A stretch of 64,000 bases of DNA from Candidatus Lloydbacteria bacterium RIFCSPHIGHO2_02_FULL_50_18 (GCA_001821395.1 MHLM01000012.1:64001-128000), one strand, 5' to 3'. Shown: positions 5,436-57,712, counted from the stretch's first letter. The notes: a model not told the origin generated them from the sequence alone. Program-made: numbers and translations.

Positions 5436-5556
5436 TACTTGGCCGGACTTTTGTCTGCAGTAAGGGCACCCGAAGAAGCTTCGAGTGTCTTTACATTTGT
5501 GATAAAACGCTATAGTTTTAGCGAGGATGTAAGATTGATTTTTAAAGGAGCGAATA

Positions 5557-6768
5557 ATGCATGATCATGGTCTTGGAATAAATACTCCGATCTACCCTTC
5601 CGTGACTTTTGGGGTAAGCGACCCGGGTAAACCGGCGGAGTATTTCGCAAACGGTATTCCCGAAGGCAAATATTTGTATGGACGCTTTGGGCACCCCAAC
5701 TATGCTGATTTACGCGAGCGTTTGTCACTCATAGAGGGCGGCGAAGATGCACTCCTCTTTGGGAGTGGCATTGCGGCGACGTTTACGCTCTTTTTTGCGA
5801 TGCTTGCTGTTGGTGATCATATTGTTGTATCGAGCCGTATCTACGGCGGCACACGCGGACAGCTTGCTATGCTTGCAGACAAACTTCATCTTAAGGTGAG
5901 TGTGGTCGACATACTCGACATGAATGCAGTGCGTAAGGCATGTACCAAAAACACCAAGTTGTTGTTTGTTGAAGCGCAATCGAATCCTGAGGTCGTGTTT
6001 GCTGACATTCCCAAACTCGCATCTATTTGTCACACTGAAAAAAGAAAAATTCTTTTGGTGGTGGACAACACGTTCACCATACTTGTTGTGCGCCCACTTG
6101 CACTTGGTGCCGACGTGGTGATGCATAGCCTGACGAAATATGTGAATGGGCGCTCTGATGCGATGGGCGGTGCATTGATAGGCAAAAAGGAACTGCTGCA
6201 GAGTATTGCACACCCGGGAACCGGCGAAGCGTCGCTCATTGGCGCGTTGCTCCATCCGCCGGTAGCGCAGGAAATGGCCGAGCGGCTCTATCAGATCGAA
6301 GATCGGGTACGCGAAGCCGGTGTGAGGGCGAAGTATCTTGCAGAACGCTTCCGTGCACGCGGACTTTCGGTGCATTATCCGACTTCGTGCCCCATGAAGC
6401 ATCGACATTTCGGAGATGACCGGGAGTCATGTTACGGCGGTGTATTTTCGGTCCATTTTCCTTCCGTAGAGGAAGGTGTGCGCTTCGTTGATCTTGCCTG
6501 CGCCGAGATGCTTGATGACCCGATGCTCGGAAAATATCCGCTCTCAACCCCTATGGTTTCATTGGGGAGTGCGCATACGTACGTATGGTGCGCCACCGAA
6601 GCATATGTGCAAAGCACGGTGACAAAGTGGAAATCGCTTCCATTTTCACGGGTGCCGTTCGGCTCAGTGCGCATCGCCGTCGGCTATGCGGGTGACAGGA
6701 CCCTCATGCTTAATGGTTTCGATAAGGTGCTTTATGAATTGGGTTATTTTCGATCAAAAGCTCATTAA
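5557..6768 (+). CDS. PLP-dependent Cys/Met metabolism enzyme (cystathionine gamma-synthase/beta-lyase/methionine gamma-lyase family)
   Basis: HSLTKYVNGRSD PLP-lysine motif, VVDNTF, 403 aa. Confidence 0.75.
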   Translation: MHDHGLGINTPIYPSVTFGVSDPGKPAEYFANGIPEGKYLYGRFGHPNYADLRERLSLIEGGEDALLFGSGIAATFTLFFAMLAVGDHIVVSSRIYGGTRGQLAMLADKLHLKVSVVDILDMNAVRKACTKNTKLLFVEAQSNPEVVFADIPKLASICHTEKRKILLVVDNTFTILVVRPLALGADVVMHSLTKYVNGRSDAMGGALIGKKELLQSIAHPGTGEASLIGALLHPPVAQEMAERLYQIEDRVREAGVRAKYLAERFRARGLSVHYPTSCPMKHRHFGDDRESCYGGVFSVHFPSVEEGVRFVDLACAEMLDDPMLGKYPLSTPMVSLGSAHTYVWCATEAYVQSTVTKWKSLPFSRVPFGSVRIAVGYAGDRTLMLNGFDKVLYELGYFRSKAH

Positions 6769-7229: not shown

Positions 7230-7568
7230 CTAAAATACTGATTTTACTCTGTTTATAGTAAGATATTTTCCGAGTACATCGTGGATATGCTTGAGTTTTG
7301 CGGAGCTGTATTTGAAGCGCTTGTTGTTTGCTGCGTCCTTTTCAATATCGGCAACTTCTGCGGGCGACACCTGGGCCCAACCGTACCGCATGTCATTCGG
7401 GGTATCGGGATCCATCGCATCGTCGAGGTCTTCCATGATCTCGTCGACCTCGAAAGAGGTTAATTTATCGGCTGAATGCCCGAAGGGAGCATTTGCTAGC
7501 TCTCCGCGAATAAAATGCAGCTCTTCTTTTGTGATCCCGTTCGGTCGTATCGGTCCAAATAGTGACAT
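7230..7568 (-). CDS. hypothetical protein
   Basis: 112-aa ORF 4 nt downstream of HIT gene on same strand; no recognisable motif. Confidence 0.4.
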   Translation of the reverse strand: MSLFGPIRPNGITKEELHFIRGELANAPFGHSADKLTSFEVDEIMEDLDDAMDPDTPNDMRYGWAQVSPAEVADIEKDAANNKRFKYSSAKLKHIHDVLGKYLTINRVKSVF

Positions 7569-22751: not shown

Positions 22752-23222
22752 ATGCGCGGACCAGTAAAGAATCGTAATATCCGAAAGCCGGATGCAAAGT
22801 ATCATTCAGTAGAAGTTTCGACACTCATCAACTACGTGATGTGGGAAGGAAAAAAGACCATCGCAACGACGGTCGTTTATGATGCACTTGAGCTCATCAA
22901 AACTCAGCTAAAAGTAGAGGACCCTATCGAAGTCTACAAGGAAGCACTGCGCAACGCCGGACCGATCATGGAAATTCGTTCACGCCGCGTCGGTGGCGCC
23001 AATTATCAGGTTCCCCGTGAGGTCCGACCCGAGCGCCGCATCTTCCTCGCGCTGCGCTGGATCATCGATGCCGCTCGCTCAAAGAAGGGAGCCGGAATGG
23101 CCAAGAAGCTTGCCGATGAGATCATCTCCGCTTCAAAGAACGAGGGTGAAGCTATCAAGAAACGTGAGAATGTGCACAAGATGGCGGAAGCGAACAAAGC
23201 CTTCGCGCACTTCGCCTGGTAA
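22752..23222 (+). CDS. rpsG: 30S ribosomal protein S7
   Basis: S7 family throughout; 156 aa. Confidence 0.95.
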   Translation: MRGPVKNRNIRKPDAKYHSVEVSTLINYVMWEGKKTIATTVVYDALELIKTQLKVEDPIEVYKEALRNAGPIMEIRSRRVGGANYQVPREVRPERRIFLALRWIIDAARSKKGAGMAKKLADEIISASKNEGEAIKKRENVHKMAEANKAFAHFAW

Positions 23223-23487
23223 AAATTTTGTAATTCTGGCGCCCTTCGCGCTTGACTTTGAACGCGAGTCCGACGAACGTACTATGAGGAGTACGTCCGC
23301 ACGGACATCGCATTCTTGCCGCGCGCGAATTGCATCCAGAATAACAAAATTTTTCGTATCGGCTGCAAAATGCAGCAAATAAAATTCCCTCGAAAGGGGA
23401 ATTTTAATTTTACTAAATCGCGTTGCGGACGTAGTGTTTTATGTTATGGTGACGGAAGATCGTTCAAATTTAATGGAGGAGTGCGTT

Positions 23488-27123: not shown

Positions 27124-27142
27124 ATATATTTCTCGTAGATAA

Positions 27143-27180
27143 ATAAAAGCGATCATTATTTAATGGTCGCTTTTATTTTT
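27143..27180 (+). terminator. rho-independent terminator after fusA
   Basis: aaagcga...tcgcttttattttt. Confidence 0.6.
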
Positions 27181-29295: not shown

Positions 29296-29343
29296 AGAAT
29301 ATTATCTTAACCTATGCTATAGCATAGGTTAAGATAATATTCT
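29296..29343. repeat. 48-bp perfect palindrome AGAATATTATCTTAACCTATGCTA|TAGCATAGGTTAAGATAATATTCT
   Basis: Exact reverse-complement symmetry over 48 nt in the convergent intergenic region. Confidence 0.8.
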
Positions 29344-41272: not shown

Positions 41273-41361
41273 GTTGTATGCGTCTATTGATAATATTGCA
41301 CAATTATATCATGACACAGCAAAACACCACCGCACATTTGTGCGGTGGTGTTTTGCTTGTT

Positions 41362-41427: not shown

Positions 41428-42028
41428 TGACGTATTGCTTATACTGCTAATGAACGAACGTATCTTCAGTGTAGCAGATTTTCGTCATGACATGAAAATG
41501 CCCGGTTGTACCCATGTTGATAGTGGTCATACGGACCGACCCATGCTTATTTGCAAAAACAGGGGATAACTTTCACTACGGAAGGCGCTTTGAGGCTATA
41601 ATGGTGACAACATTTTCGCACATTACGCGCTGGGTGCTTTTGGAGTAAAAAGCGAGCAGGACGTAGTGTGAGAAGATCCACAAAATGGATCCTTATGCTA
41701 TGTTCCAGCGAATGGACATATCGTTGCGGAGAAACAAAAACTTCGTTAACGGTAGAGGTTAGTCGTATATCTTTCTTATCAACATCGTGGATACGCGTTC
41801 GTTGCCTACAGCAAGGAATGTGAAAAGTGATGAAGAGAAGTACTCTGGAGCCAATTTTTATGAATCCGTTGTCGAGTGCTAAAAAGCAAAAGTAACGATC
41901 GCCAATCGTCCTCCCGCATAAAAAAGTATCTGTAGTACTTTTTATGCCAGAGTGCATGCTCATCGAAAGATATCAACGAATTGTCATAGCGCCGCGTTCA
42001 GGCAAGAACGCGGCGTTATGTATTGAGG

Positions 42029-42146
42029 ATTGAGAACATAGCAAATTTCTTTGTTGAAACATGAACATGCAAGCAAGCCGTACTCCGAGTACGGCTTGCT
42101 TGCATGTTCATGTTTCGTCTCGAACTTTGCATATGTTCTCAATCCT
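42029..42146. repeat. ~118-bp near-palindrome with 25-bp perfect inner arms (ATGAACATGCAAGCAAGCCGTACTC|GGAGTACGGCTTGCTTGCATGTTCAT)
   Basis: Inner 52-bp perfect palindrome 42061..42112 flanked by imperfect inverted arms GGATTGAGAACAT...ATGTTCTCAATCC. Confidence 0.75.
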
Positions 42147-42231
42147 AAAGGATGAATGTCCAATCGCTACTGTTGCGATTTTTTTATTATCTGGCAGTCT
42201 GAGTACAGAATGGTCTTCGAGGGAGGCAGGA

Positions 42232-42918
42232 ATGGTTCAAGCATCAGTCAACAAAGAGCAACTAGATAAGCTTCGAAATACTTATTGCGATGCAGCGCAG
42301 TACTTGGGTGTCCCACGCACAAGTGCAGAACGATGTTTCACGAAACTCGCGCAATACTATGCTGAACCGCATCGGCGCTATCATACGCTGGCTCATCTGC
42401 ACCAGTGCATGGTTGAGTTTGCGGATGTAGTGTGGCACAGTCAGGATCCTGCGCTCATTGTCATGGCTATTTTTTACCATGATATTACGTACGACGTTCA
42501 TCGCAACGATAACGAAGCGAAGAGTGCGTTGTATTGGAAATTCATTGCCCGCCATGTACTCGAAGTGAAGAACGAAGGATTCATCGCCGAGGTCGCCCGA
42601 TTGATCGAACTTAGCGGCGAACATCGTACGGACCCTGTCACTGATCCTGATGCCGCGCTCTTCCTCGACGTCGACATGTCGATTCTAGGAGCTGACGCAC
42701 CGGAGTACGACGCATATGCGGCCGCAGTGCGACAGGAGTATGCGCACTGCAGTGACGATGAATGGGCGTTTGGTCGCGTTGCGAAGTTCCTTGATCCGAC
42801 CTTGTGTGAGGACAGAATATTTCTCACTGATATCTTTCGTCAAAAATATGAAGAAAATGCGCGCGCAAACCTGATGGAAGAGCGTTGCCGCTATCAAAAA
42901 AACCTACCGCTCGCATGA
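42232..42918 (+). CDS. HD-domain metal-dependent phosphohydrolase
   Basis: RYHTLAHLH and FYHDITYD (H..H / HD) motifs; start at MVQASVNK downstream of the palindrome; terminator overlaps stop (42903..42930). Confidence 0.55.
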   Translation: MVQASVNKEQLDKLRNTYCDAAQYLGVPRTSAERCFTKLAQYYAEPHRRYHTLAHLHQCMVEFADVVWHSQDPALIVMAIFYHDITYDVHRNDNEAKSALYWKFIARHVLEVKNEGFIAEVARLIELSGEHRTDPVTDPDAALFLDVDMSILGADAPEYDAYAAAVRQEYAHCSDDEWAFGRVAKFLDPTLCEDRIFLTDIFRQKYEENARANLMEERCRYQKNLPLA

Positions 42919-43017
42919 GCGGTTTTTTCTTGACAAAGAGTATTTGTTGTGGAGAATCAAGAACGGCAGTCCCAATAGGGAAAGCCGTTCTTTTACAACC
43001 AACCGAAAGGATAACTC

Positions 43018-43866
43018 ATGAGCGAGATAGCCGAAAAAGTAAACCCATCGACCGATGGGCAGATGAAAGACCTCACCAGCGTTCTGGTGACCGCCATGCC
43101 CGATCACGAAAAATTCCCACGGGAACAAATCGAGTATTGGATGAAAAACAAGCGCTTGCTCGCGGCAAAGGTGCGCGCAGTGCTTGAGGGGGCCCCACGT
43201 GGCCTTGGGCAAACAACGCAAGAAGTGCTGCAATCCTGGGAGCGATTTTATCGCGAGATACTCAAAATAAAAGTCGACTTCTCGGATATCGATACTCCGC
43301 CACGTTTTAGTGAATTTAAGGCCATTATTCCCGTGATCTCATCTATTTCCGCAGAAGAAATTGTCGGTTTACTCACGAAAAATTTCAATCATGAATTTAG
43401 TTTGAGAGACTTTCAGTGCAACTTAGATGAGCTCTCGCACTTGCGTCCGGAGGGGCACTATGCGGTTTTGCACCGAGGTACTCGAATGCCCGATCTCGAT
43501 ATGCAGATCACCAGGCAGCGAGCTACTGAGGGTGTGGTCGCGAGGTACACTTGCGTACATCCTCCCGTCGATGCTTCTTCATTTATGAATCCAAGGGAGT
43601 ACATCCTTTTTGCGGCGTTCAACGTCTGGATGACATCTGGTCGTCACTCGTCACCATGGTTCGACTACGACATTGCTGGCACTAATTTTATTGGCGAGAG
43701 AGCGCTCCCTGGAACCGCGTTCCCACAGATGGATGCTTTTGATCGACCACTGGCCGCGTGTTGCCACTCTAGCAATAACCATGAGTGCCACATTGAACAC
43801 CCTTGTGGCTTTGAAAATTCCTACGGGCGACTTGTGAAAGTACTTTCTTCCTTGCGCATCGCATAA
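43018..43866 (+). CDS. hypothetical protein; shares a local motif with ORF 50374..51195 (possible paralog)
   Basis: RPEGHYAVLHRGTRMPD vs RPRCTYVVVHRGGMEPD; terminator 43871..43906. Confidence 0.5.
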   Translation: MSEIAEKVNPSTDGQMKDLTSVLVTAMPDHEKFPREQIEYWMKNKRLLAAKVRAVLEGAPRGLGQTTQEVLQSWERFYREILKIKVDFSDIDTPPRFSEFKAIIPVISSISAEEIVGLLTKNFNHEFSLRDFQCNLDELSHLRPEGHYAVLHRGTRMPDLDMQITRQRATEGVVARYTCVHPPVDASSFMNPREYILFAAFNVWMTSGRHSSPWFDYDIAGTNFIGERALPGTAFPQMDAFDRPLAACCHSSNNHECHIEHPCGFENSYGRLVKVLSSLRIA

Positions 43867-43899
43867 CGTGTTTATCACCACCGAGAAATCGGTGGTTTT

Positions 43900-44970
43900 T
43901 TATATGATGAGCATTCCGTCGCCGAATGAGTAGAAGCGGAATTTTTCCCTTATGGCGATGTCGTAGAGCGCGAGGATGTCGCGCTTCGCTCTTTTGTGTT
44001 TGAGGAGTGCGTCGACCAAGAGCATGAGTGATGAGCGAGGGACGTGGAAGTTCGTAATAAGCCCATCTGCAATCTTGAATTCGTACGGCGGGTAGATAAA
44101 TATATTCGTAGGCTTAGAACATTGCTCAACACTCCAAGGTTCCACCTTGGAGTGTTGGATTGCAGCGGATTCGAGGGTACGCATGGCGGTAGTGCCGACG
44201 GGGATGATGGGAATACCCGCCGCTTTTGCACTATTTATTTTTTTTGCGCTTTCCTTTGTGATATCGAGATACTCCGCAAAAAGTTTTTTACTTTTGAAAT
44301 TTTGTTCATCAATCGGCGCAAAGGTACCCGCACCTACATGAAGCGTGACCTCCGTACGCGTGATGTGTTCACGTTTCATTTTTTCGAGTAAGCGATCGGT
44401 GAAATGGAGCGACGCCGTTGGTGCTGCAATTGACGCGGGATATTTCGCGAGAATACTTTGGTATTTTTCACGCAATGTGTGCTCGGACATCGTATTGCCC
44501 TTGATATATGGGGGTATTGGCGTCACACCCTCTTTCTCGAGCAAACTCCAAAGGCTGCCTTTGGATACACTGGGATTGAAAAAGAAAAATTGCTCTTCTT
44601 GTCTTTCGACCTCAAGGTGCGCCCCTGACTTAAAGAAGAGTTTGGCACCGGGAAGGATCTTGCGGTCGACCACTCCTTTAATAGAGATGTCGCCGGGACG
44701 GAATTCATTCATCATGAGAAGCACCTCGATCTTGCCGCCCGTTTCTTTGGAAAGCCACAATCGGGCAGGAACGACCTTTGTATCATTAAAGACAAGCAGG
44801 CTGGGTTTGGGGAGATATTGGTCAATATTCCGGAAAACATCAAAATGCACCTTATCAGTTTTCGTATCGTAGACGAACAATCGAGCGGAATCTCGCGGAG
44901 AAGCGGGCTCATTGGCGATAAGCCCCTCAGGGAGGTGGTAGTTATAATCATCGAGAGAGATCATGTGCAC
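43900..44970 (-). CDS. queA: S-adenosylmethionine:tRNA ribosyltransferase-isomerase
   Basis: LPEGLIANEPASPRDSARL, PIPPYI, AAPTASLHFT, HVGAGTF, TNFHVPRSSL, YSFGDGMLI motifs. Confidence 0.9.
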   Translation of the reverse strand: MHMISLDDYNYHLPEGLIANEPASPRDSARLFVYDTKTDKVHFDVFRNIDQYLPKPSLLVFNDTKVVPARLWLSKETGGKIEVLLMMNEFRPGDISIKGVVDRKILPGAKLFFKSGAHLEVERQEEQFFFFNPSVSKGSLWSLLEKEGVTPIPPYIKGNTMSEHTLREKYQSILAKYPASIAAPTASLHFTDRLLEKMKREHITRTEVTLHVGAGTFAPIDEQNFKSKKLFAEYLDITKESAKKINSAKAAGIPIIPVGTTAMRTLESAAIQHSKVEPWSVEQCSKPTNIFIYPPYEFKIADGLITNFHVPRSSLMLLVDALLKHKRAKRDILALYDIAIREKFRFYSFGDGMLII

Positions 44971-45419: not shown

Positions 45420-45589
45420 TGTTGCTCCTTCGGTTTGGTTTTTGAGTCTGACATGACATTAGCACGAAAAATATTTATGTCAATAATTTGATATTCCTAT
45501 ATTTTATAACATATTTTGACTTAATTCGAACGCCACACCTAGGAAGTGAGGGAAATAGGTCTTTTGGGAGACTTCACGGGCTTGAAATA

Positions 45590-45720
45590 CGCACCTGGGA
45601 GCGAGGTATTGCTTTTTGAGGGGCTACGGACCGCGGCGGCGGGAGTTTGAGGAAAAAGTCAGCAGACTTTTATCCGTGCCCTCAAAAAGCAATGCCGAGC
45701 GTATACATTGACTTCTTTGG
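45590..45720. repeat. palindromic intergenic repeat element (copy A) upstream of rpsS; related to 49590..49760
   Basis: Internal inverted arms gcgaggtattgctttttgagggg / ccctcaaaaagcaatgccgagcg; aligns to reverse complement of copy B. Confidence 0.65.
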
Positions 45721-48971: not shown

Positions 48972-49583
48972 ATGAACGTCCCAACAATAAAAGAAAAGAT
49001 AAAGTCCGCATATCCAAAGCTGAAAGAGAAGCATGGATATAAGAACGTCATGCAGGCACCTAAGGTGGAGAAGGTCATCATTTCCGTGGGCACCGGTAAG
49101 ATGTCCCGCAATGACAAGAAGAAGAATGAGTTCGTCGCGAGCCGGCTTGGTATGATCACCGGACAGAAGGCGTCTGCACGAAAGGCAAAACAATCGATCG
49201 CTTCGTTCAAGCTTCGTGAGGGTGATGTCATCGGACAGATGGTCACGATGCGCGGGAGCAAAATGATGGGTTTCCTCGACAAGCTTGTGAACGTGGCTAT
49301 CCCGCGTACGCGCGACTTCCGAGGATTCCGTGCCGCCTCGATCGATGCAATGGGGAATTTCACCCTTGGTATCAAGGAGCACACGATCTTCCCTGAGACT
49401 GCAGATGAAGACCTGAAAGACGTCTTCAGCCTCGCACTCACTGTCGTTCTTTCAACGAGGAACAAGGAGGAGTCCATTGATTTCTTGGAGCACCTTGGTT
49501 TCCCGTTCCGCGAAACTGCGAACGAGGGAAAGAAAAAGAAAGAGAAGAAGGTTGACGCCCCAAGTAAGAAGTGGAAGAAGTAA
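48972..49583 (+). CDS. rplE: 50S ribosomal protein L5 with Lys-rich C-terminal tail
   Basis: L5 family core; C-terminal EGKKKKEKKVDAPSKKWKK. Confidence 0.9.
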   Translation: MNVPTIKEKIKSAYPKLKEKHGYKNVMQAPKVEKVIISVGTGKMSRNDKKKNEFVASRLGMITGQKASARKAKQSIASFKLREGDVIGQMVTMRGSKMMGFLDKLVNVAIPRTRDFRGFRAASIDAMGNFTLGIKEHTIFPETADEDLKDVFSLALTVVLSTRNKEESIDFLEHLGFPFRETANEGKKKKEKKVDAPSKKWKK

Positions 49584-49589
49584 TTACCG

Positions 49590-49760
49590 CTCAGCATTGC
49601 TTTTTGAGAGCACGGATAAAAGTCTGCTGACTTTTTCCACCGCAAGGGTACTTCCAATTTCATACTCCCTATGGTCGTTGAAATTTAGGTCGCTCACACC
49701 TCGCACTGCCCGGCTCCGTAGCCTCTCAAAAAGCAATACTTCGCTCCCAGGTTCGTTTTT
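49590..49760. repeat. palindromic intergenic repeat element (copy B) downstream of rplE, with ~75-bp internal insert sharing cctcgcactgc / aaatttcaac modules with the 34.6/37.5-kb elements
   Basis: Reverse complement aligns to 45596..45700; insert aligns in pieces to copies C/D. Confidence 0.65.
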
Positions 49761-49837
49761 CGAGCGGGGATCCGAAAAGACTTATTGTCTTCGCCCAAGA
49801 GGATCGGAGTTCGCGTTTGAAATACAAAACCCGCTCA

Positions 49838-49868
49838 TTTGAGCGGGTTTTGTTCTTTTGAGAATAAG
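49838..49868. terminator. palindromic rho-independent terminator (near-identical hairpin to 41165..41197)
   Basis: caaaacccgctcatttgagcgggttttgttc. Confidence 0.7.
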
Positions 49869-49939
49869 CTCAATGAGGCCCTTTACTTTTTTGAAAAAAA
49901 GCAGAATCTGAGAAGAGTTGTTTTTATTGAGAGGTAGAG

Positions 49940-50308
49940 ATGCAGATCCGCTTTCGGGTTCGCGAACTCGCTTTGGCAATTCGGGAATTTCTCGTCGGTG
50001 TCTTTGTCTTCTTCCGGCGGTCAGTGAAAAGAAGGGATGAAGTACGATATTGCTTCATGTGCCAAGAGTACGGCCATCCGCTTACTAAAGTATCGTTCAT
50101 GATCCGCACAGAAGCGCGGAGGGGGGCAAAGAAGGAGGCGCCATTCTCGGTCATGGAACTCCACGTGTGCAGTATGCATCATCCTGACAAGGACGTCGTC
50201 GGGGCAGACCTGTCCGAGGAAACACGATCATTTCTTCGAAACAATGATGCTGCCGCAGCGTGTGTCTACTATTACCATGATCCCGATCATGTTTTCCGCC
50301 TCGGATAA
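49940..50308 (+). CDS. hypothetical protein
   Basis: 122 aa; its 3' end plus terminator is duplicated at 51215..51288. Confidence 0.4.
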   Translation: MQIRFRVRELALAIREFLVGVFVFFRRSVKRRDEVRYCFMCQEYGHPLTKVSFMIRTEARRGAKKEAPFSVMELHVCSMHHPDKDVVGADLSEETRSFLRNNDAAAACVYYYHDPDHVFRLG

Positions 50309-50373
50309 GAGGTGGTTTTTTTATACTCCGTACGTTATCCAAAGGTAATTGGACAAAGTAGCAAAAATGCAAT

Positions 50374-51195
50374 ATGGTCAGTACGGAAAAGCTAGCCCCG
50401 GGCTCCATCGTGGGAATATTCTTTGAGAAGGAACAGTCCATGCAAACAGATAAGACAGACTCGGCTTCTGCAACGCCGGAACAACTCGCGATGCTTACTG
50501 GCGAGTTCGCTCTGGCTCTGGCTAAGGCAAAGCCATCCGCCGCTCTCATGCAGCATCTGCTCCGAAGCAGGGTGGCAACACGGAAGATGATCATCGCGGC
50601 CCTATCGACGCAGGGAAGAATCAGTCACACGATTGATCCTCGCCTCGTGCAGTGTCAAAAGCTATGGGAGAAACTCGGAGTGGTGCTCGACTGCATGGAC
50701 AATCTTGTCATGCCGGAAATCCCATCCGGTTGGCGCGGTATCGCCATCATCCCACCACTCACAAATGAAGCACTCCTCGCTCTTTGCAAAAAGCACTTTC
50801 CGATATGGTCGAAACGCGATGGCCTCGACAATATCTTGAGAGAACAAAATCGACCACGATGCACCTACGTCGTCGTCCATCGTGGTGGTATGGAGCCGGA
50901 TAAAGAGCATCGTAATAAGAGTCATGATGATGCGGTCAATGAAGGTTTGTATTTTTTGACGCTGAAGGAGCGTATCTGCATCGAGCTTCTTCATTTCATA
51001 AAAACAGGCAAGCATTTTGATGTTAAGGGGACCATGACAGTCACATCCTCGCTGACGATGGGTGGCGATGCGTTTAATGTGTATTGGAGTTCGCATATTC
51101 AGACGTTCATTGTGGATGGTTGCCGTACGGTGACTTCGTACTCGACGAATGGGCTTCGTCAGGCCGTTTTCTTTGGATTGAAGCCTTACCGTTGA
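50374..51195 (+). CDS. hypothetical protein (possible paralog of 43018..43866)
   Basis: 273 aa; shared ..VVHRGG.EPD.. motif. Confidence 0.5.
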   Translation: MVSTEKLAPGSIVGIFFEKEQSMQTDKTDSASATPEQLAMLTGEFALALAKAKPSAALMQHLLRSRVATRKMIIAALSTQGRISHTIDPRLVQCQKLWEKLGVVLDCMDNLVMPEIPSGWRGIAIIPPLTNEALLALCKKHFPIWSKRDGLDNILREQNRPRCTYVVVHRGGMEPDKEHRNKSHDDAVNEGLYFLTLKERICIELLHFIKTGKHFDVKGTMTVTSSLTMGGDAFNVYWSSHIQTFIVDGCRTVTSYSTNGLRQAVFFGLKPYR

Positions 51196-51214
51196 TTGCT
51201 GAGCCGACACTTGT

Positions 51215-51288
51215 GCCGCAGCGTGTGTCTACTATTATCATGATCCCGATCATGTTTTCCGCCTCGGTTAAGAGGCGGTTTTTTTATA
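51215..51288 (+). repeat. non-coding duplicate (~96% identical) of 50252..50330 (3' end of ORF 49940 + terminator)
   Basis: gccgcagcgtgtgtctactatta(c/t)catgatcccgatcatgttttccgcctcgg(a/t)taagagg(t/c)ggttttttta; no start codon in copy 2. Confidence 0.75.
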
Positions 51289-51317
51289 AGACAAATTTTT
51301 GACTTTCCTGAAAGTTA

Positions 51318-52367
51318 ATGTATGGTGAGCACTGGTTTTGTACTTTTATATCTAACCTGAGGAAAGACATGGACATTAATACGTCTGACCCCGGTGACAA
51401 TGGACGACGGGGTATCGATAGGGGTTTGAGCGACAGGCGCGAGTATGACCTTGCCAGGACCCTCATTGGAACGTTGCTGTTCGTTAAGTTATATCGAGCT
51501 GCAGGCGCTCTCAAGTTCCTGAAGGCGCTCAAGGTTCTTGGTCCTCTCATGATGGTGGTCTCCGGAATTTTCACGGGAGAGATCTATTCTCTCGTCATGA
51601 AAACCTCCCTTGTTGTGGGGCTGCTATTTTCTCTTGCGGTGCATGAGCTCGGTCACTATGTTGCGACGAAGCGATGCGGCCTCCGCGCGGCGTGGTGGCT
51701 CTTCATTCCATTCGTCGGAGCGTGGATGGAAGCGCCGGATTTTCGTTCCCGCAATGACGAGGCGTGCATCGCTTTTGGTGGTCCTTTCATCGGAGGGATA
51801 TTTTCTCTGATATTGTTCTGTGCATGGTTGGTACTACCGCTGTCCAATGAATGGGGAAATATTCTCTTCACCATAGCTTTCCTTTCGACGATGTTGAATC
51901 TCTTCAATATGATCCCGCTTTCGCCGCTTGATGGCGGAAGGATCACCGAAGGGGTGAGTATCTGGTTTCGCGTCGCAGGGTTCGTTGTATTGATCACGCT
52001 TTCTCTCTATACCGCTCAAGCATCGATGGCTCTTGTGTGGTTGCTGGTGATGAGTGAAGTTCGGATGTCCGCACGATTGAGGTTTGTCACGGCGGCGCTC
52101 ATGCTGATCCTTATGGCGGTACTCATTATACTGGGGTATCACGGGCCTTCCGCTCTTGAAGATTGGTGCTATTTTGCGGTCGGCGTATGGCTGCTCTCCG
52201 CTTTTTATAAGCGTTGGAAGAATCCGCCCCCTCGGCATGATCATCGCAATGTCAGATTGACTCCAGCGGAGCGAAAAAAATGGAAACGTTCGTACTGTGG
52301 GCTCCTTCTTTTCCTCATCGTATTGTTTGCCGCATTTTTCCCTCACATGAGCAAACTTGCTTTTTGA
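51318..52367 (+). CDS. M50-like membrane zinc metalloprotease
   Basis: AVHELGHYVA HExxH and NLFNMIPLSPLDGG motifs; multi-TM; terminator 52371..52400. Confidence 0.65.
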   Translation: MYGEHWFCTFISNLRKDMDINTSDPGDNGRRGIDRGLSDRREYDLARTLIGTLLFVKLYRAAGALKFLKALKVLGPLMMVVSGIFTGEIYSLVMKTSLVVGLLFSLAVHELGHYVATKRCGLRAAWWLFIPFVGAWMEAPDFRSRNDEACIAFGGPFIGGIFSLILFCAWLVLPLSNEWGNILFTIAFLSTMLNLFNMIPLSPLDGGRITEGVSIWFRVAGFVVLITLSLYTAQASMALVWLLVMSEVRMSARLRFVTAALMLILMAVLIILGYHGPSALEDWCYFAVGVWLLSAFYKRWKNPPPRHDHRNVRLTPAERKKWKRSYCGLLLFLIVLFAAFFPHMSKLAF

Positions 52368-52474
52368 GTTGAATAACTCGCCGATAATCTCGGCGAGTTT
52401 TTTGTGCATTGTTGAATTGCATACTGTTGAGAGCAGTACTATACTTTATGTACATTAATATATATCCTCTCGTC

Positions 52475-55219
52475 ATGTCCTCAACAAAAAGGTTTTTTTC
52501 ACTGTGCATGTTTGGCATATTCCTCCTTCCCTCACTCGCCGCTGCTGACACCACCATCTCCTCCAACATCACCACGAATCAAACCTGGACCACGGCAAGC
52601 AGTACATACATCGTCACCACCGGTATTGCGATCAACGCAGGTGTCACCCTCACCATCAACCCCGGAGTGATCGTGAAGTTCAGCGGGATCATGTCCGGCA
52701 TCACCGTGAATGGGACGTTAAACGCCCAAGGAACCGCACTTGCACCGATATACTTCACCTCATACAAAGATGACACCGTGAATGGTGATACGAATGGCGA
52801 TGCGACCTCAACAACCCCAGCCGGGGGCGACTGGTTTTGGTTCTCCATTCCCGCGGGCGGAGCAGCAACGATCGACAACGCGATCATCCGCTATGGCGGC
52901 AGTTTCAATACTGCGCTGTTCTATAATAACGGAGGTAACCTCACCCTTGCGAACTCCGAAGTCGCATCCAGTTCCAAGTATGGCATCTGGACATATTCCG
53001 GCATATCAACTATCGCTTCTTCCACCATCGATCACAACGCGAGCTACGGTATCTATCATACGGGAGGCACCACTACCGTTGCCACGAGTACGATCCGCGA
53101 TCACAGCACCTATGGCTTCTCCACCCAGAGCGGAACTGGAAATCTCATCCTCACCAACAATATCTTTTCCGGTAATCTTCAAGGTGGAGGACTGGTGAAC
53201 TTGGCCGACAGTGCAAACGTGACCCATACGAACAACAGTGCAACGGGGCAAGGAAAGGGTGGCATGGTCATCTATGGTTCTCCCAATAAGGCACAGACAT
53301 GGGGAGCAGACCCGCTCTTCCCGTATATTATCTCAACGACAACAGGGTCGGTCACCGTGAGTACGTATGCCATCACCCTCAATCCCGGTGCGATCATCAA
53401 ATTTGAAGGAACAACCGCAGGGTTTGCGGGCAATTCAGGCACCTTCACTGCCGCGGGAACTACACAATCTCCCGTATATTTCACCTCCATCAAGGACGAC
53501 ACCGTGGGTGGCGACACCAATGGGAATGGCACGGGTACCACTCCATCTGCGGGGGATTGGGATGGTCTCATGTCCCAGAACTATAGCAATCTCACGTTGA
53601 ACAATACCGTGATCCGCTACGGTGGCTCAAAGATGCTCTATGCCAACGGTGTGAACAGCGTCATCAACCTATTCAACTCAGAAGTTGCCAGCAGTTCAAG
53701 TGCGGGAATCTATAGTGATGCAGGAACAGTGAATGCCACCGGTACGAGCATTCACGACAATCGCTACGGCTATTATCACGGCAATGTCCAAGGCAATAGC
53801 ATTGCCCACATTGCCAATGCCGGCAACACCATCTATCGCAATAGCACCTATGGTATTTATAACAATGGAACCGCCCTCGTGAATGCCGAGCAGGTATACT
53901 GGCCGGCGACAACAACGGGAGCGACGATGAATGGGCCGTATAGTACAAGCACCAACCCAGGGGGGCATGGAGATGCTGTGCTCCCCACATACATCGACTT
54001 TGATCCTTGGCTCTCTACCGTGTCAGGAAATATCGCAACGAATACCACGTGGACTGCTTCGAGTACATATGTCATTGATGGAACGCTCACGGTGAATGCG
54101 GGGACGACACTCACGATTCCTGCAGCTACGGTGGTGAAGTTTGCCAATGCAACCTCAAAGATCAGCGTCTCGGGGAGCTTGGTTGCAGATTCTGCAGCGT
54201 CTTCCTCACGAATATATTTCACGTCAATCAAGGATGATGCGGTGGGAGGGGATACCAATGGAGATGGGGGTGCGACTTCACCTGCTGCGGGAGATTGGGA
54301 TGGGATCAAAGTGAATGCGGGAGGCGTTGCAACACTGAACTTCATTTCTGCTCGCTATGGAGGAAGTGGTGGGCCCATGCTTTGGAACTATGCAGGAACG
54401 TTGGATCTTAATAATTCAGAAATTGCGAGCAGTAGTAATACGGGAATCTTCCATTCCTCGGGTGCCACGCAATTAATAGTTCGAGCTTGTGATATTCACA
54501 ACAATAATTATGGCATATTTGTTGACGACAGCTCGCTTGTGACAATCGGCAGCAACAATATTCATGGCAATGTTGTGGGAGTAAATGATAATACTTTTTT
54601 TGGGATTGATATTAGATATAACTATTGGGGTGATGCAAGTGGCCCATATAATTCTGTCTATCACCCGACTGGGACCGGTGATACCATCGTTGAGAATGCG
54701 TTTACGCTTGTTTCTCCATGGTTAGACAGGGTACATTATTTGTATTTCTTAAACCACAATTTGGTTACTTCGATTACCAGTGGAGTATTGGATTGGAATT
54801 GGTTCAACGGCACATCTACTTATGCGACGGCTTGGTATGCAGGAGTTAACACATGGAACACATATGGAAATTCGGTTGGAGGAGTTACTTTTGCAACAAG
54901 TACCACGGCAACATCCTCAGCTGATTTACTCGTTTTGGACATGGCTAGCTCATCTAGTGATTTATTCTATGCCATCTACGACCCCTTTGTTACTCCTACG
55001 GAAATTAAATTTAACCCTTATTATATGAACACTGCAACTGCTAATATAAGGCAAATGACCACAACTCATGAACTTGGTCATGCCCTAGGGCTTTGGCACA
55101 GTTATATAAACAACATCATGATTGCATCCCCAGCTTCAACTACTGGTCAGGTTTCACTGGGCACTCAAGATATGTTGGATTACGATTATTGTTGGGTGAG
55201 TCATAATTGTGGGATATAA
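52475..55219 (+). CDS. large secreted protein: signal peptide, three ~270-aa parallel beta-helix-like super-repeats, C-terminal metzincin (HELGHALGLWH) protease domain
   Basis: Repeated YFTS(I/Y)KDD.V.GDTNG..G.T.PAGDW and I(R/I)YGGS...NSE(V/I)ASSS blocks; HEXXHXXGXXH at residues ~880; start at MSSTKRFFSLCMFGIFLLPSLAAA within ORF 52409. Confidence 0.7.
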   Translation: MSSTKRFFSLCMFGIFLLPSLAAADTTISSNITTNQTWTTASSTYIVTTGIAINAGVTLTINPGVIVKFSGIMSGITVNGTLNAQGTALAPIYFTSYKDDTVNGDTNGDATSTTPAGGDWFWFSIPAGGAATIDNAIIRYGGSFNTALFYNNGGNLTLANSEVASSSKYGIWTYSGISTIASSTIDHNASYGIYHTGGTTTVATSTIRDHSTYGFSTQSGTGNLILTNNIFSGNLQGGGLVNLADSANVTHTNNSATGQGKGGMVIYGSPNKAQTWGADPLFPYIISTTTGSVTVSTYAITLNPGAIIKFEGTTAGFAGNSGTFTAAGTTQSPVYFTSIKDDTVGGDTNGNGTGTTPSAGDWDGLMSQNYSNLTLNNTVIRYGGSKMLYANGVNSVINLFNSEVASSSSAGIYSDAGTVNATGTSIHDNRYGYYHGNVQGNSIAHIANAGNTIYRNSTYGIYNNGTALVNAEQVYWPATTTGATMNGPYSTSTNPGGHGDAVLPTYIDFDPWLSTVSGNIATNTTWTASSTYVIDGTLTVNAGTTLTIPAATVVKFANATSKISVSGSLVADSAASSSRIYFTSIKDDAVGGDTNGDGGATSPAAGDWDGIKVNAGGVATLNFISARYGGSGGPMLWNYAGTLDLNNSEIASSSNTGIFHSSGATQLIVRACDIHNNNYGIFVDDSSLVTIGSNNIHGNVVGVNDNTFFGIDIRYNYWGDASGPYNSVYHPTGTGDTIVENAFTLVSPWLDRVHYLYFLNHNLVTSITSGVLDWNWFNGTSTYATAWYAGVNTWNTYGNSVGGVTFATSTTATSSADLLVLDMASSSSDLFYAIYDPFVTPTEIKFNPYYMNTATANIRQMTTTHELGHALGLWHSYINNIMIASPASTTGQVSLGTQDMLDYDYCWVSHNCGI

Positions 55220-55230
55220 CATTGAAAACC

Positions 55231-55959
55231 ATGAACAAAGATATAAAAGATATAATAATCCTTCTTACTGCACTCCTGCTCTCTGCCATCGTCATTGCTG
55301 GAATATATTACAGAGCAAAAAGAATACCCGAAGAAACTCCAGGAACCTTGAAAAGATATCAGCTCCAAGGAACACCTGATCATCCGGCGATGTTTTATCC
55401 TACCGATCTGACTAAAGATATAAACCTATTGGGCTCATCTCATGATGTTTTCATAGGAAAAGTCATTTCTCAAACTGGTGACAAAGAAACTCAGATTGGA
55501 CCACGCACACAATATTCGGTGGAAGTTATTGATAATATTAAGGGTAAGTTAAAAGATATTGTAACCATTGACATGCTGGGTGGTTATGACAAAGATGGCA
55601 AGTTGGTAGTAATCGAAGAAAATGATTCAACTGATTTTCTCCTTAAACCAGGCTCAACTTACCTCTTTGCTACCCGTTATAACGAAGAAGAGGATTGGTA
55701 TACTCTAATTTCTCACCCGAATGCTCGAAAAATTATAAGTACAGATAACACAAAAAATGAAGCCGCTCTCATGGCTCTCATCGACCAAGACGAAAAGGTA
55801 AAATCCTTTGAATCCGCATACGCCCATGAAGTTCTCCTCGACGCCGACATCGCCCACGGAAATACTCGTAACTCCTTCCAGTCTCTCGCACCAGCGGAAA
55901 AAGCCGCCGCCCAATCCCGCGCTGATGCGGCAAGAGCCTTGCTTGAGGCAATGCAGTAA
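55231..55959 (+). CDS. N-terminally membrane-anchored protein, partner of the beta-helix/metzincin gene
   Basis: MNKDIKDIIILLTALLLSAIVIAGIYY TM anchor then soluble ~200-aa domain; start overlaps upstream gene stop; 5' region duplicated at 56196. Confidence 0.5.
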   Translation: MNKDIKDIIILLTALLLSAIVIAGIYYRAKRIPEETPGTLKRYQLQGTPDHPAMFYPTDLTKDINLLGSSHDVFIGKVISQTGDKETQIGPRTQYSVEVIDNIKGKLKDIVTIDMLGGYDKDGKLVVIEENDSTDFLLKPGSTYLFATRYNEEEDWYTLISHPNARKIISTDNTKNEAALMALIDQDEKVKSFESAYAHEVLLDADIAHGNTRNSFQSLAPAEKAAAQSRADAARALLEAMQ

Positions 55960-56002
55960 GATGCTTCTGCGGGGGTATACTTATTTGTGAACACAACGGC
56001 TC

Positions 56003-56185
56003 ATGAACAAAAAAATACTAAAATACACACTTGTCATCTTTGGGATATTCCTGCTCGGAGGCGTCGCGTTGTCGATCCATTTGTTCATCCAAAGTAAATT
56101 TGGTGTTTACGCTCCTCTAGATCGCGGATTTCCGGTAAGGACATTCCATCCAACGGGTATTAGTATTGATCAACCCAGCATTTGA
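56003..56185 (+). CDS. small single-TM protein (possibly degenerate copy of same family)
   Basis: MNKKILKYTLVIFGIFLLGGVALSI N-terminus echoes MNKDIKDIIILL... Confidence 0.3.
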   Translation: MNKKILKYTLVIFGIFLLGGVALSIHLFIQSKFGVYAPLDRGFPVRTFHPTGISIDQPSI

Positions 56186-56195
56186 ATGGATACCT

Positions 56196-56380
56196 ATCAT
56201 AATTGTGGGATATAACATTGAAAACTATGAACAAAGACATAAAAGATATAATGATTCTTCTTATTGCACTTCTACTCTCCATCGTCGTCATTGCTGGAAT
56301 ATATTACGGAATAAAAAGTACTCAAGGAACTGTAGTTTCAACATATTCTCATCAGGGAACGCCTGAAAATCCGGCAATGT
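56196..56380 (+). repeat. ~190-bp duplicate (~85% identical) of 55203..55400 (junction: ...HNCGI stop + 5' part of membrane-anchor gene), encoding a truncated 47-aa copy
   Basis: cataattgtgggatataacattgaaaac(c/t)atgaacaaaga(t/c)ataaaagatataat... shared. Confidence 0.7.
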
Positions 56381-56897
56381 AGAATTTCATAGAAAACAAT
56401 AATTATGGAAGCTCTAAAAAATGAATTAAAGAAAACAATGGTCGTATGGAGAGATGCGTTAATCTGAGAAAAAAGATTTGCTAATCTGAAAAAGCTATTC
56501 CTCGTTATTTTGGGTGTGGCTGTGTTTATCATTATCTTTCCGATGCCAACGAGGTGCAGGATAGAAAATCATGGAGCATATAGGCCGGCTAACGATTTAG
56601 TAATTGGTGCATACGTGGTTCGTGATTGTTACCCACCAAACCGTGCTGAATTTTGGCAGAACCCACAATTGAGTTTTGAATTTCGCTGGTTATTTGTTCC
56701 CACGTTAGACAGTATAACTGGTCATCGAGGTGTCAGTGTAATAAATATCCATCTATAAGGTAATCCCACATTCGCGTAAGCAATAAAAACTGCTACAAGG
56801 CGGGTCTTTGTTTTTTGTCTGGGCTATTCCTCGCGAGCACTAAGGTGTTCGCATATTGCTGGTCTGCGATAATCTAGTCTTATATAATAGACTCATA

Positions 56898-57320
56898 ATG
56901 AAACAAAATATACTCCTCGCGCTTACTGTTGCGGGCTTACTTTTCTCGGGTTATCTCGGCGGACTGAAGTTGTTTTCCGACACGTGTGCATTTAACGAGA
57001 CATGCGCGACATTTTTAGGGTACCCGACGTGTTATTACGGCTTTGCGATGTACCTCTTGATCTTTGTCCTTCTTCTCGCGTCGCGTTTCGGGAAGATGGG
57101 CGTTTCCCGCGCTCGGTACGGAGTAGCCGGTATCTCTTTTGCGGGCATTCTTTTTTCCGGATATTACAGTTTCCGCGAGTTATCAACTCTTCTTCGTGGG
57201 GATATTTCCGATTTTTTGCTCGGATTGCCGACCTGCGCATACGGATTCATCATGTATGTGGCTATTTTGGGCTTTGCGTTGTCATCGATACGAGAAATTC
57301 AAAAGAAGAAGTTGAACTAG
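56898..57320 (+). CDS. 4-TM membrane protein with internal duplication (G.PTC.YGF.MY twice)
   Basis: LGYPTCYYGFAMYLLIF and LGLPTCAYGFIMYVAIL halves; start at MKQNILLALT within ORF 56856. Confidence 0.45.
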   Translation: MKQNILLALTVAGLLFSGYLGGLKLFSDTCAFNETCATFLGYPTCYYGFAMYLLIFVLLLASRFGKMGVSRARYGVAGISFAGILFSGYYSFRELSTLLRGDISDFLLGLPTCAYGFIMYVAILGFALSSIREIQKKKLN

Positions 57321-57369
57321 CTGCTATTTTGCAGAAAAATTGAGATATTTTATTCTGTGTCGTCACAAA

Positions 57370-57398
57370 TTGACAGTCGTTGAGCCATTTGTTAGTAT
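57370..57398 (+). promoter_or_regulatory. sigma70-like promoter TTGACA-17-TAGTAT upstream of rpsZ
   Basis: ttgacagtcgttgagccatttgttagtat. Confidence 0.5.
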
Positions 57399-57529
57399 CC
57401 AAGCACGTTTCTTTTGATCCGCCTTTCTCCTTTTTGACCCCAAATCTTGGGAGCAAGAAGAAAACAGGCGTGATATTGAAAGGGCGTATTATGTCCGACC
57501 GCGTCGAGGTTGGTATTTATCTATTTATT

Positions 57530-57712
57530 ATGGCAAAAAAATCAACAATTGCACGACAACTCACCCCGAAATTTCCGGGTCGAGCAGTCAATCGCTGTTT
57601 TAAGTGCGGGCGAAAACGCGGCTATATGAGAGCTTTCGATCTCTGCCGTATCTGTTTTCGTGAATTAGCAAACGAGGGAAAGGTCCCCGGAATAAAGAAA
57701 TCATCATGGTAA
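57530..57712 (+). CDS. rpsZ: 30S ribosomal protein S14 type Z (zinc-binding)
   Basis: [10 protein letters not shown]...[34 protein letters not shown]; 60 aa. Confidence 0.85.

Follow-up and report, generated by a model that had tools for sequence, protein, structure and literature searches.

Two gene-end repeats in a variable island of a Lloydbacteria ribosomal-protein cluster are probably scars of two unrelated rearrangements

In an island of Candidatus Lloydbacteria bacterium RIFCSPHIGHO2_02_FULL_50_18 (GCA_001821395.1, MHLM01000012.1:64001-128000), two stretches that each begin in the 3' end of a gene occur twice, and the question is whether these repeats belong to an element that moves genes or were left behind by ordinary rearrangements. 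The host is a member of Parcubacteria in the Candidate Phyla Radiation (CPR) from Rifle groundwater, and the stretch of DNA analyzed, hereafter the window, is 64 kb long. The island (about 8 kb, 49.6-57.5 kb) splits a ribosomal-protein gene cluster between rplE (48972-49583) and rpsN (57530-57712). It carries, in order, the open reading frames (ORFs) ORF122 and ORF273, an M50 peptidase gene, a gene for a beta-helix protein with a HELGH protease domain, ORF242, ORF60, ORF51, a stop-interrupted small gene and a VKOR-like gene. The first repeat, R1, lies around ORF273, and the second, R2, lies at the start of ORF242 and of ORF51. Our results suggest that R1 and R2 probably stem from two ordinary rearrangements, unrelated to each other, that left scars in a fast-changing island, and that they are not parts of a working element.

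Self-comparison of the window returned R1 and R2 as its sole dispersed direct repeats at E<=1e-3. R1 (50251-50325 vs 51214-51288) is 75 nt long and gap-free, with 72/75 identical positions (96%, three mismatches) and a self-BLAST E-value of 7e-28. R2 (55201-55393 vs 56197-56380) covers 193 and 184 nt with 79% identity and three gaps, its first 122 nt being 89% identical, and has an E-value of 1e-38. Both repeats are far beyond chance. An earlier note on this DNA had described two repeats within one island, and both are indeed present; its limits for R1 were off by 1-5 nt, and its figure of about 85% for R2 was slightly high over the whole length.

The earlier note had named assembly artefacts, such as collapsed or expanded repeats, as what would overturn its interpretation, and the source is indeed a metagenome-assembled genome. 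We compared assemblies from ENA scaffolds, JGI, Logan and MEGAHIT k141. The 7.9-kb island (49584-57530) was 100% identical in at least nine independent assemblies, which came from several samples and from at least three different pipelines, one of them run at k=141, and every contig that reached the repeats held both copies of each. Because identical contigs were obtained across pipelines, and because the copies are short (75 and 122-190 nt, below read length or k=141), differ from each other and are each embedded in unique sequence, an assembly artefact is excluded for practical purposes and is, in our judgement, very improbable.

The features of the R1 region are the following.

49940-50308, + strand: ORF122, Cys/His-rich, 122 aa; its last 19 codons are the coding part of R1 copy 1
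50251-50325, + strand: R1 copy 1, made of the ORF122 3' end, stop codon, terminator hairpin, a T7 run and ATA
50326-51213, + strand: unique insert of 888 bp, made of a promoter-like site and ORF273
50350-50378: promoter-like site before ORF273, from a promoter scan
50374-51195, + strand: ORF273, whose likely true start is the ATG at 50437
51214-51288, + strand: R1 copy 2, a non-coding duplicate with an intact terminator at 51259-51278
51318-52367, + strand: gene for an M50-family intramembrane metalloprotease (Pfam PF02163, E 3.5e-17), the resident neighbour downstream of ORF122 in relatives

The terminator hairpin of R1 copy 1 (50296-50315) has a 7-bp stem, CCGCCTC-GGATAA-GAGGTGG. ORF122 itself gave no Pfam, NCBIfam or PHROG match; its orthologs, 87% and 71% identical, stand at the same place after rplE in contigs L019 and L020 from two relatives, and these two, both from related populations, were its only more distant homologs in a large protein collection. 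The start of R1 copy 2 is 19 nt past the stop of ORF273, and the copy lies between ORF273 and the promoter-like site of the M50 gene, which is outside the repeat. The open frame of copy 2 reads AAACVYYYHDPDHVFRLG and then a stop codon. Because this frame is unlike that of ORF273, is preceded by an in-frame stop and has no start codon, copy 2 is non-coding, just as the earlier note had stated. According to the same note, the end of the upstream gene is still encoded in frame by both copies; this is correct only in that an uninterrupted relic frame is kept, and neither relic is part of a gene.

Next, we compared the R1 region with L019, whose ribosomal genes are about 96% identical to those of the window, and with L020. 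In both relatives rplE is followed by ORF122, a single R1 module and the M50 gene, and ORF273 is missing. The left flank of the single module matches the left flank of copy 1, and its right flank matches the right flank of copy 2; therefore, the window differs from both relatives by a segment of 963 bp, consisting of 888 unique and 75 duplicated bp. Thus R1 is, as had been proposed, a duplicated module of a gene 3' end and its terminator, and it flanks a gene that is missing in both relatives. Of the three mismatches between the copies, copy 2 shows the L020 base at 3/3 and the L019 base at 2/3, and copy 1 carries three derived bases relative to L020 (2/3 relative to L019). Two of these changes are synonymous in ORF122, and the third, a C-to-T change, makes a G-C pair of the stem a G-U pair, so that both the coding sequence and the hairpin are kept. 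This comparison establishes that the site is empty in two relatives, where exactly the duplication begins and ends, and that copy 2 is in the ancestral state.

We propose that a self-contained unit, consisting of the promoter-like site and ORF273, was inserted immediately downstream of the ORF122 terminator, and that the 75-bp target, made up of the terminator together with the last 19 ORF122 codons, would have been copied to the far side of the insert during this event. As an outcome, ORF122 would have retained its end and its terminator, and ORF273 would have gained a terminator ahead of the M50 gene. Insertion-duplication and a replicative template switch appear to be the most likely routes, and the two are not separable here. 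By the former, a Campbell-type integration by host recombination, a circularised or concatemeric fragment carrying R1 and ORF273 would have been taken up by a competent cell, and one homologous crossover at R1 would have produced R1-ORF273-R1; because copy 1 carries all variant bases, this crossover would have to lie left of position 25. Genes for ComEC, RecJ and a pilin-like protein are present in the window. By the latter, synthesis would have exited after the T-run, copied the foreign unit and re-entered the chromosome 75 nt upstream; the microhomology at the R1 junction is 2 nt or less. About 70 window ORFs gave no Pfam match to an integrase, transposase, recombinase or reverse transcriptase (RT), and no dedicated mobile machinery was found in the window.

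We also analyzed the inserted gene. ORF273 had no Pfam, PHROG or NCBIfam match and is without a recombinase domain, and its AlphaFold2 model, built from a 3-sequence alignment, was unusable (predicted local distance difference test score, pLDDT, 47). Its family comprises 647 clusters at E<=1e-3 in a representative library, and its close homologs are few and stand in unrelated contexts. A homolog with 61% identity, in locus L014, is the variable-protein gene of a bona fide diversity-generating retroelement (DGR). This DGR (3406-5859 of L014) has a 114-nt repeat, with the variable repeat (VR, 4044-4157) at the 3' end of the gene and the template repeat (TR, 4457-4570) downstream, and 17/19 TR-VR changes are at TR adenines; an Avd gene (4593-4910, - strand) and an adjoining RT-like ORF with a YCDD motif (4936-5859) complete it. 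For ORF273 of the window, neither a TR nor an RT nor Avd is present within the 64 kb. In the strain contigs L010-L012, single-nucleotide polymorphisms (SNPs) relative to the window are concentrated at 51023-51117 in the 3' part of ORF273, with 8-11 in 95 nt vs 0-1 elsewhere. Active DGR mutagenesis of ORF273 in the population was considered and rejected, since these SNPs are mostly at third codon positions; the cluster suggests an imported recombination patch.

The comparison with L019 also showed a second single-gene insertion in the window, with these features.

42929-43901, + strand: second insertion, 973 bp, with an empty site in L019
42930-42957: promoter-like site, TTGACA-16-GAGAAT, from the promoter scan
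43018-43866, + strand: gene for a 282-aa paralog of ORF273
43877-43896: the insertion's own terminator, a hairpin with a GAAA loop and a T-run

This insertion lies exactly after the T-run of a resident terminator (42906-42923), between a gene at 42061-42918 and queA, and the identity at its flanks is GGTTTTTT only (8 nt). Pairwise and shallow-profile comparisons of ORF273 with the 282-aa gene were only suggestive; the conclusive result came from a 152-member hidden Markov model (HMM) of the ORF273 family, which matched 2 of the 336 window ORFs, ORF273 (E 9e-68) and the 282-aa gene (E 8.5e-24). Therefore, both gene gains relative to L019 are paralogs of one family, and each is placed directly behind a terminator.

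R2 and the genes around it are as follows.

52475-55219, + strand: gene for a secreted beta-helix protein with a C-terminal Zn-metalloprotease domain, 914 aa (Pfam Beta_helix, E 9e-21; weak M10/M43)
55201-55393, + strand: R2 copy 1, which reaches from the last 19 nt of the protease gene across an 11-nt spacer into ORF242, of which it covers the first 163 nt
55231-55959, + strand: ORF242, with a membrane anchor at the N-terminus, then a disordered linker and an OB domain predicted to be NTR/TIMP-like
56003-56185, + strand: ORF60, a leader-only (anchor and linker) 5' fragment of a "type B" ORF242-family gene
56197-56380, + strand: R2 copy 2, made of a protease 3'-end relic (YHNCGI and stop), the same 11-nt spacer and ORF51
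56227-56382, + strand: ORF51, 51 aa, leader-only, which starts MNKDIKD and ends GTPENPAM before its stop
56405-56758, + strand: ORF82x, probable pseudogene of a small membrane protein, with an in-frame TGA at 56465-56467
56898-57320: VKOR-like gene, a member of the island

The protease gene has its HELGH motif at 55067-55081 and, in its beta-helix part, three internal repeats of about 730 nt each. R2 starts 19 nt ahead of the protease stop (…CATAATTGTGGGATATAA), the part of ORF242 held by copy 1 is the start codon, membrane anchor and linker, and the similarity extends through the linker and ends at …CCGGCRATGT; no terminator is present in the repeat. In copy 2, the protease relic amounts to 9 codons and is in frame with ORF60 through a TGA, and ORF51 and ORF242 are preceded by the same 29 nt. 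We searched the six-frame translation of 55960-56900 with the ORF242 family HMM and found no ORF242 body in any frame after copy 2, so that only the leader is present. ORF60 aligns with the N-termini of proteins P0011, P0013, P0017 and P0020 and of ORF242b of L021 (55% over 60 aa). In the alignment, ORF60 and ORF51 break off at one and the same column, one residue ahead of a conserved [FL]YPxD that opens the folded domain, and it is unlikely that they share this column by chance. A microhomology deletion was considered for ORF51, with GGCAATG at the leader end and at the gene end; the sequence after the junction is unlike the 3' flank of ORF242, and this origin is unproven.

The DNA behind ORF51 has a decayed look as well. 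ORF82x gave tblastn matches in L029, L030 (four times), L033 and L039, and leader-only ORFs of an ORF82x-like type are common in related loci. Members of the ORF82x family are membrane proteins of about 115 aa with the motifs P-x-R-C and KEFW that accompany the protease and ORF242 genes, and in L033 an ORF82x-type N-terminus is fused to an ORF242 body. The G+C content is 0.525 for 52475-54289, 0.417 for 54290-55219 and 0.39 for 55960-56860; taken by features, it is 0.39-0.42 for the C-terminal protease domain, ORF242 and the region behind, vs 0.50-0.53 in the rest of the island. At about 54290 the identity to L017, a third contig from a relative, rises from 63-76% to 84-92%, and at this boundary the G+C drop, the jump in identity and the end of the third beta-helix repeat coincide. 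Because of these shifts in G+C content and in identity to L017, the C-terminal protease domain together with its partner gene looks like an exchanged block. We read 55960-56860 as the remains of further module copies, of which R2 copy 2 is the piece still recognisable in DNA.

We then asked how the protease and ORF242 genes are arranged elsewhere. ORF242 had 83 homologs, and in 44 of the 50 informative metagenome loci the C-terminal protease domain was encoded at most 1.7 kb upstream of the ORF242 homolog; seven loci had at least two ORF242 copies. A search for genome contigs with ORF242 returned one irrelevant match of 34% identity. Protease and ORF242 are thus a conserved two-gene module of Parcubacteria, often with tandem or partial copies. 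Tandem arrays of the module are present in L024 and L056, and protease 3' fragments of 44-53 aa that retain HELGH stand before extra ORF242 copies in L023, L042 and L033. L057 has a duplicated junction of protease end and next-gene start (54 nt, 89%), and L021/L022 have a duplicated 5' end of the ORF242 gene (103 nt, 90%). In L062, a 132-nt repeat (97%; 3833-3964 and 7414-7545) of a gene 3' end plus terminator surrounds a 3.5-kb insert that holds the protease gene, ORF242 and one further gene, an architecture analogous to that of R1. In total, 17 direct-repeat pairs (40-400 nt, >=85%, 0.3-6 kb apart) were counted in 364 kb of related loci. Some of these pairs are of an ordinary kind; a repeat in L070, for instance, was considered as an R1 analogue and rejected as an ordinary att duplication at a tRNA gene. 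Separately, L067 has a 186-nt perfect repeat of a gene 5' end (2015-2200 and 3095-3280) around an ORF242 homolog.

ORF242 contains no cysteine and has no sequence match to PDB chains or to the Pfam TIMP and NTR families, and is for this reason TIMP-like in fold only. Based on the predicted fold and the adjacency of the two genes, we hypothesize that the pair may be a protease and its inhibitor.

These data suggest the following origin for R2. The module of protease and ORF242 would have been duplicated in tandem, with the duplicated unit starting inside the protease 3' end, and the downstream copy or copies would have decayed by deletion to the 184-nt piece of junction plus leader (ORF51). This leftover would then have come to adjoin the leader-only piece of another paralog (ORF60) and the stop-interrupted small gene. 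The module, its arrays and partial copies in relatives, the missing body and the low-G+C debris zone were directly observed; the order of these events, and the reason why both leaders end at the same codon, are inferred.

The linker adds a further aspect. Over the R2 linker (about 75 nt), copy 2 is 84% identical to L017 and has a 6-nt indel in common with it, and copy 1 is 61-62% identical to either; over the junction and anchor parts, copy 1, copy 2 and L017 are about equidistant (83-97%). The ORF242 body is 93-100% identical to that of L017 while the linker groups L017 with copy 2, in a comparison of three sequences only. Therefore, the working ORF242 of the window would have a replaced or fast-diverged linker, and the older type would survive in the relic. 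The shared breakpoint and this pattern of linker alleles hint at recombination focused on the boundary between the ORF242 leader and body.

How far, then, do the two repeats have a cause in common? The earlier note's view of two separate events in one variable island is supported by these results. It had also pointed to recombination at terminator hairpins, and in fact R1 involves a terminator and the second insertion lies at a T-run; R2 is without a terminator, however, so this is no common cause. As for cassette-like gene shuffling, genes have been gained and shuffled, and in relatives the R2 module is shuffled, duplicated and truncated, whereas no mobile machinery was found. The earlier note had written of repeated copying of cassettes; nothing showed such copying as a repeated, programmed process.

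Several points weigh against reading R1 and R2 as ordinary scars. Known transposases make target duplications that are much shorter than 75 bp. Neither a donor in which ORF273 stands beside R1 nor an intermediate in circular or concatemeric form was seen, which leaves the insertion routes as proposals. A loss of ORF273 in both relatives, through recombination between ancestral R1 copies, would give the same picture. Only three short contigs from relatives bear on the question, none of which extends downstream of ORF242, and an exact look-up of ribosomal protein S8, aimed at the right island border of a relative, returned the same species only. Finally, duplication followed by decay does not by itself predict the break column shared by ORF60 and ORF51, nor does it predict an L017-type linker in R2 copy 2.

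What else could have produced R1? Its copies might act like the attL/attR of a small cassette (963 bp when one repeat is counted) that is non-autonomous and would be excised as a circle and reintegrated at terminator sequences, either through homologous recombination of the host or through a recombinase whose gene lies elsewhere. Integration that restores its target classically leaves direct repeats of a gene 3' end, two paralogous single-gene units lie exactly behind terminators, the L062 repeat surrounds an insert in the same manner, and the mini-circles of T4-type phages described for PeSL cassettes are a precedent (PMC2839356). We nevertheless regard such a cassette as unlikely: the window ORFs gave no match to the enzymes named above, R1 has just two copies and no other R1-like sequence in 64 kb, the terminator of the second cassette differs and its 8 nt of flanking identity leave no common site, and the insertion is present in all population contigs. 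If R1-ORF273-R1 were instead ancestral and both relatives had lost ORF273 by recombination between the repeats, the duplication would be older. Direct repeats of 75 nt readily mediate precise deletion, and the single copy of L019 (T, A, C) mixes the states of the two window copies in the order 2-1-2; against this, two independent precise losses would be required, which is less parsimonious, L020 equals copy 2 at all three sites, the nearest ORF273 homologs stand in unrelated contexts, and an earlier step of insertion with duplication would still be needed. These considerations make an ancestral duplication rather unlikely. It is also conceivable, and in our opinion improbable, that the ORF273 family spreads as autonomous promoter-gene(-terminator) cassettes through an unrecognised mechanism directed by hairpins and T-runs, which would insert them after intrinsic terminators and leave R1 as a long target duplication, and that, separately, the leader-only ORFs are a store of exchangeable N-terminal cassettes. 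Apart from such targeting, the placement behind terminators can be explained by survivorship, because in a compact genome only insertions between a terminator and a promoter are harmless; the microhomology of G/C-stem and T-run that is common to all terminators is a third explanation. Mobile elements with enzymes of their own were also considered. For a transposon or insertion sequence (IS), the duplication is too long (75 bp vs about 2-15 bp), no inverted repeat bounds 50326-51213, and the window ORFs include no transposase. An integron cassette was rejected because no window ORF matched a tyrosine recombinase (IntI) in Pfam and because the attC core GTTRRRY is absent: copy 2 has GTTAAGA, whose last base is not Y, and copy 1 has GATAAGA. 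The hairpins of R1 are the 7-bp terminator stem and a codon-derived CATGATC/GATCATG palindrome, vs the long imperfect hairpin of attC. A TR/VR pair of a DGR has in its favour that a gene 3' end holds one copy and a non-coding copy lies downstream, and that an ORF273 homolog belongs to the true DGR of L014. However, the R1 mismatches are C/T, A/T and T/C and not adenine-specific, R1 runs through the terminator, the RT and Avd of L014 gave no significant tblastn match in the 64 kb, no RT was matched among the window ORFs, the relatives without ORF273 have one R1 copy, and the strain SNPs in ORF273 favour third codon positions. The DGR reading was rejected on the mismatch pattern, the lack of RT and Avd in the window and the empty sites, and its likelihood is next to nil.

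For R2, the rival explanation is that ORF51 and ORF60 are kept on purpose, either as silent gene-conversion donors for the linker of the TIMP-like protein or as functional small membrane peptides. That both end at the same column before [FL]YPxD would fit this, as would the conserved stretches that bound the variable linker on both sides, the copy-2 type of linker in the expressed gene of L017, the identical 29 nt upstream of ORF51 and of ORF242, and the frequency of ORF82x-like leader-only ORFs in related loci. Against it, the protein collection had no ORF242 linker variants at >90% identity (a one-member cluster) and all contigs are identical here. The surroundings resemble debris, with the in-frame stop of ORF82x, the 9-codon protease relic and the low G+C content, and there is one donor copy per type. 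Purposeful retention is therefore quite improbable, and the interpretation of R1 and R2 as scars of unrelated rearrangements remains the one we favour.

Other irregularities were seen in the same part of the genome. The ribosomal str/S10/spc cluster (22.2-63.2 kb) is broken repeatedly, by about 5 kb between fusA and tuf, by 8.4 kb between rplB and rpsS, with Fic, queA and a Bax1-I-like gene among the contents, and by the 8-kb island between rplE and rpsN. The self-comparison also returned long palindromic, self-reverse-complementary stretches at 42023-42149 (a 129-nt palindrome at 87%), 29296-29343 (perfect, 48 nt), 41318-41357, 23221-23354 and 27141-27178. A long-stem hairpin element is present at 49588-49786 (+) and 45554-45701 (-), as an inverted pair that brackets the rpsS-rplE block; its stem is about 20 bp (GCATTGCTTTTTGAGRG/CYCTCAAAAAGCAATAC), its interior is variable, and the fold z-scores are -3.6 and -5.2. 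At the same site after rplE, L019 has a long hairpin of different sequence (6485-6640, z -5.5), and no such hairpin is present there in L020. Nothing in the window was matched by Rfam (gathering threshold) or by a tRNA scan. The hairpin element, which has no Rfam match, could be a MITE-like element (miniature inverted-repeat transposable element) or a structured RNA. The strain-level contig L011, 99% identical over ORF122-ORF273, is wholly divergent left of 49726 (its 1-133 vs window 49593-49725); the point of divergence is within the right arm of the hairpin element, and the contig is either a structural variant or chimeric.

Although the repeats are without evident function, they have value as datable scars for recombination in uncultivated bacteria. 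R1 provides a clean case, with an empty site in relatives, of gene gain in a very small, reduced CPR genome, in which whole transcription units were placed directly behind existing terminators while neighbours and their terminators were left intact; in both instances within the 64 kb, the gene that was inserted is from one large uncharacterised family. The protease module is a widespread Parcubacteria pair of a secreted metalloprotease and a membrane-anchored protein of predicted TIMP-like fold, and duplication and decay are concentrated at its loci. Should the pair prove to be protease and inhibitor, bacteria would have a counterpart of the animal pair of matrix metalloproteinase (MMP) and TIMP. 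TIMPs, for their part, have an N-terminal Cys1, conserved disulfides and a free amino terminus directed to the catalytic zinc, whereas ORF242 has no cysteine and an N-terminal membrane anchor. These two, the paralogous terminator-adjacent cassettes and the predicted TIMP-like protease partner, are the more interesting side results.

Finally, we compared both repeats with known systems. In naturally transformable bacteria, insertion-duplication mutagenesis proceeds by Campbell-type integration through host homologous recombination. R1 resembles its product in that an insert lies between two direct copies of a short chromosomal segment, no enzyme of the element is needed, and the window encodes the ComEC, RecJ and pilin-like proteins mentioned above; it differs in that the homology is just 75 bp, and a donor circle was not seen. 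In the natural cases published as transformation-triggered duplications (Johnston et al. 2013, PMC3784515), the repeats are IS-sized and 100-900 kb are duplicated. PeSL (Arbiol et al. 2010, PMC2839356) are promoter/terminator cassettes of T4-type phages with modular gene shuffling and mini-circles. Like R1, they are small single-ORF units bounded by repeated terminator sequences, with presence/absence differences between close relatives. They form, however, a multi-copy family with a conserved promoter and stem-loop, whereas R1 has two copies in 64 kb and includes 55 nt of the neighbour's coding sequence; moreover, R1 is in a bacterial chromosome, the terminator of the second cassette is unrelated, and the promoter-like site of the M50 gene is outside the repeat. 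PeSL is thus the nearest published case of terminator-containing repeats that bound single ORFs, and R1 does not qualify as one. Compared with the attL/attR of integrative elements, which insert at a gene 3' end and bring along a replacement for it, R1 is likewise the 3' end of a gene, ORF122, that stays intact although interrupted, but the insert holds ORF273 alone, which is of another family, there is no integrase, and R1 adds a terminator and ends 3 nt past the T-run.

For R2, a comparable unit is known from the lpl cluster of S. aureus, in which the unit is an ORF's 3' region, the intergenic stretch and the next ORF's 5' region (Tsuru & Kobayashi 2008, PMC2568036); in such tandem paralog clusters, variable ends are shuffled around a conserved core (PMC2568036). 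Likewise, R2 consists of the protease 3' end, the spacer and the variable 5' leader of the next gene, with the same pattern in L057, the conserved body of ORF242 could serve as a recombination site, and relatives have arrays and shuffled combinations. Unlike an lpl unit, R2 copy 2 is without a gene body, and the unit spans two gene families and not two paralogs. Polymorphic toxin genes (Rhs, CDI) carry orphan toxin-tip/immunity modules downstream. The protease locus is similar in its large secreted repeat protein, its low-G+C exchangeable C-terminal enzymatic domain and its small partner gene, and in relatives (L023, L042) partial copies of a 3' fragment plus partner lie downstream. In contrast, the partner here is a predicted membrane-anchored TIMP-like protein, and the relic in the window keeps 9 protease codons and a truncated partner. 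Taken together, R1 behaves as an insertion-duplication scar or as an integrase-less att-like duplication, and R2 as the 3'-intergenic-5' unit of a tandem module.

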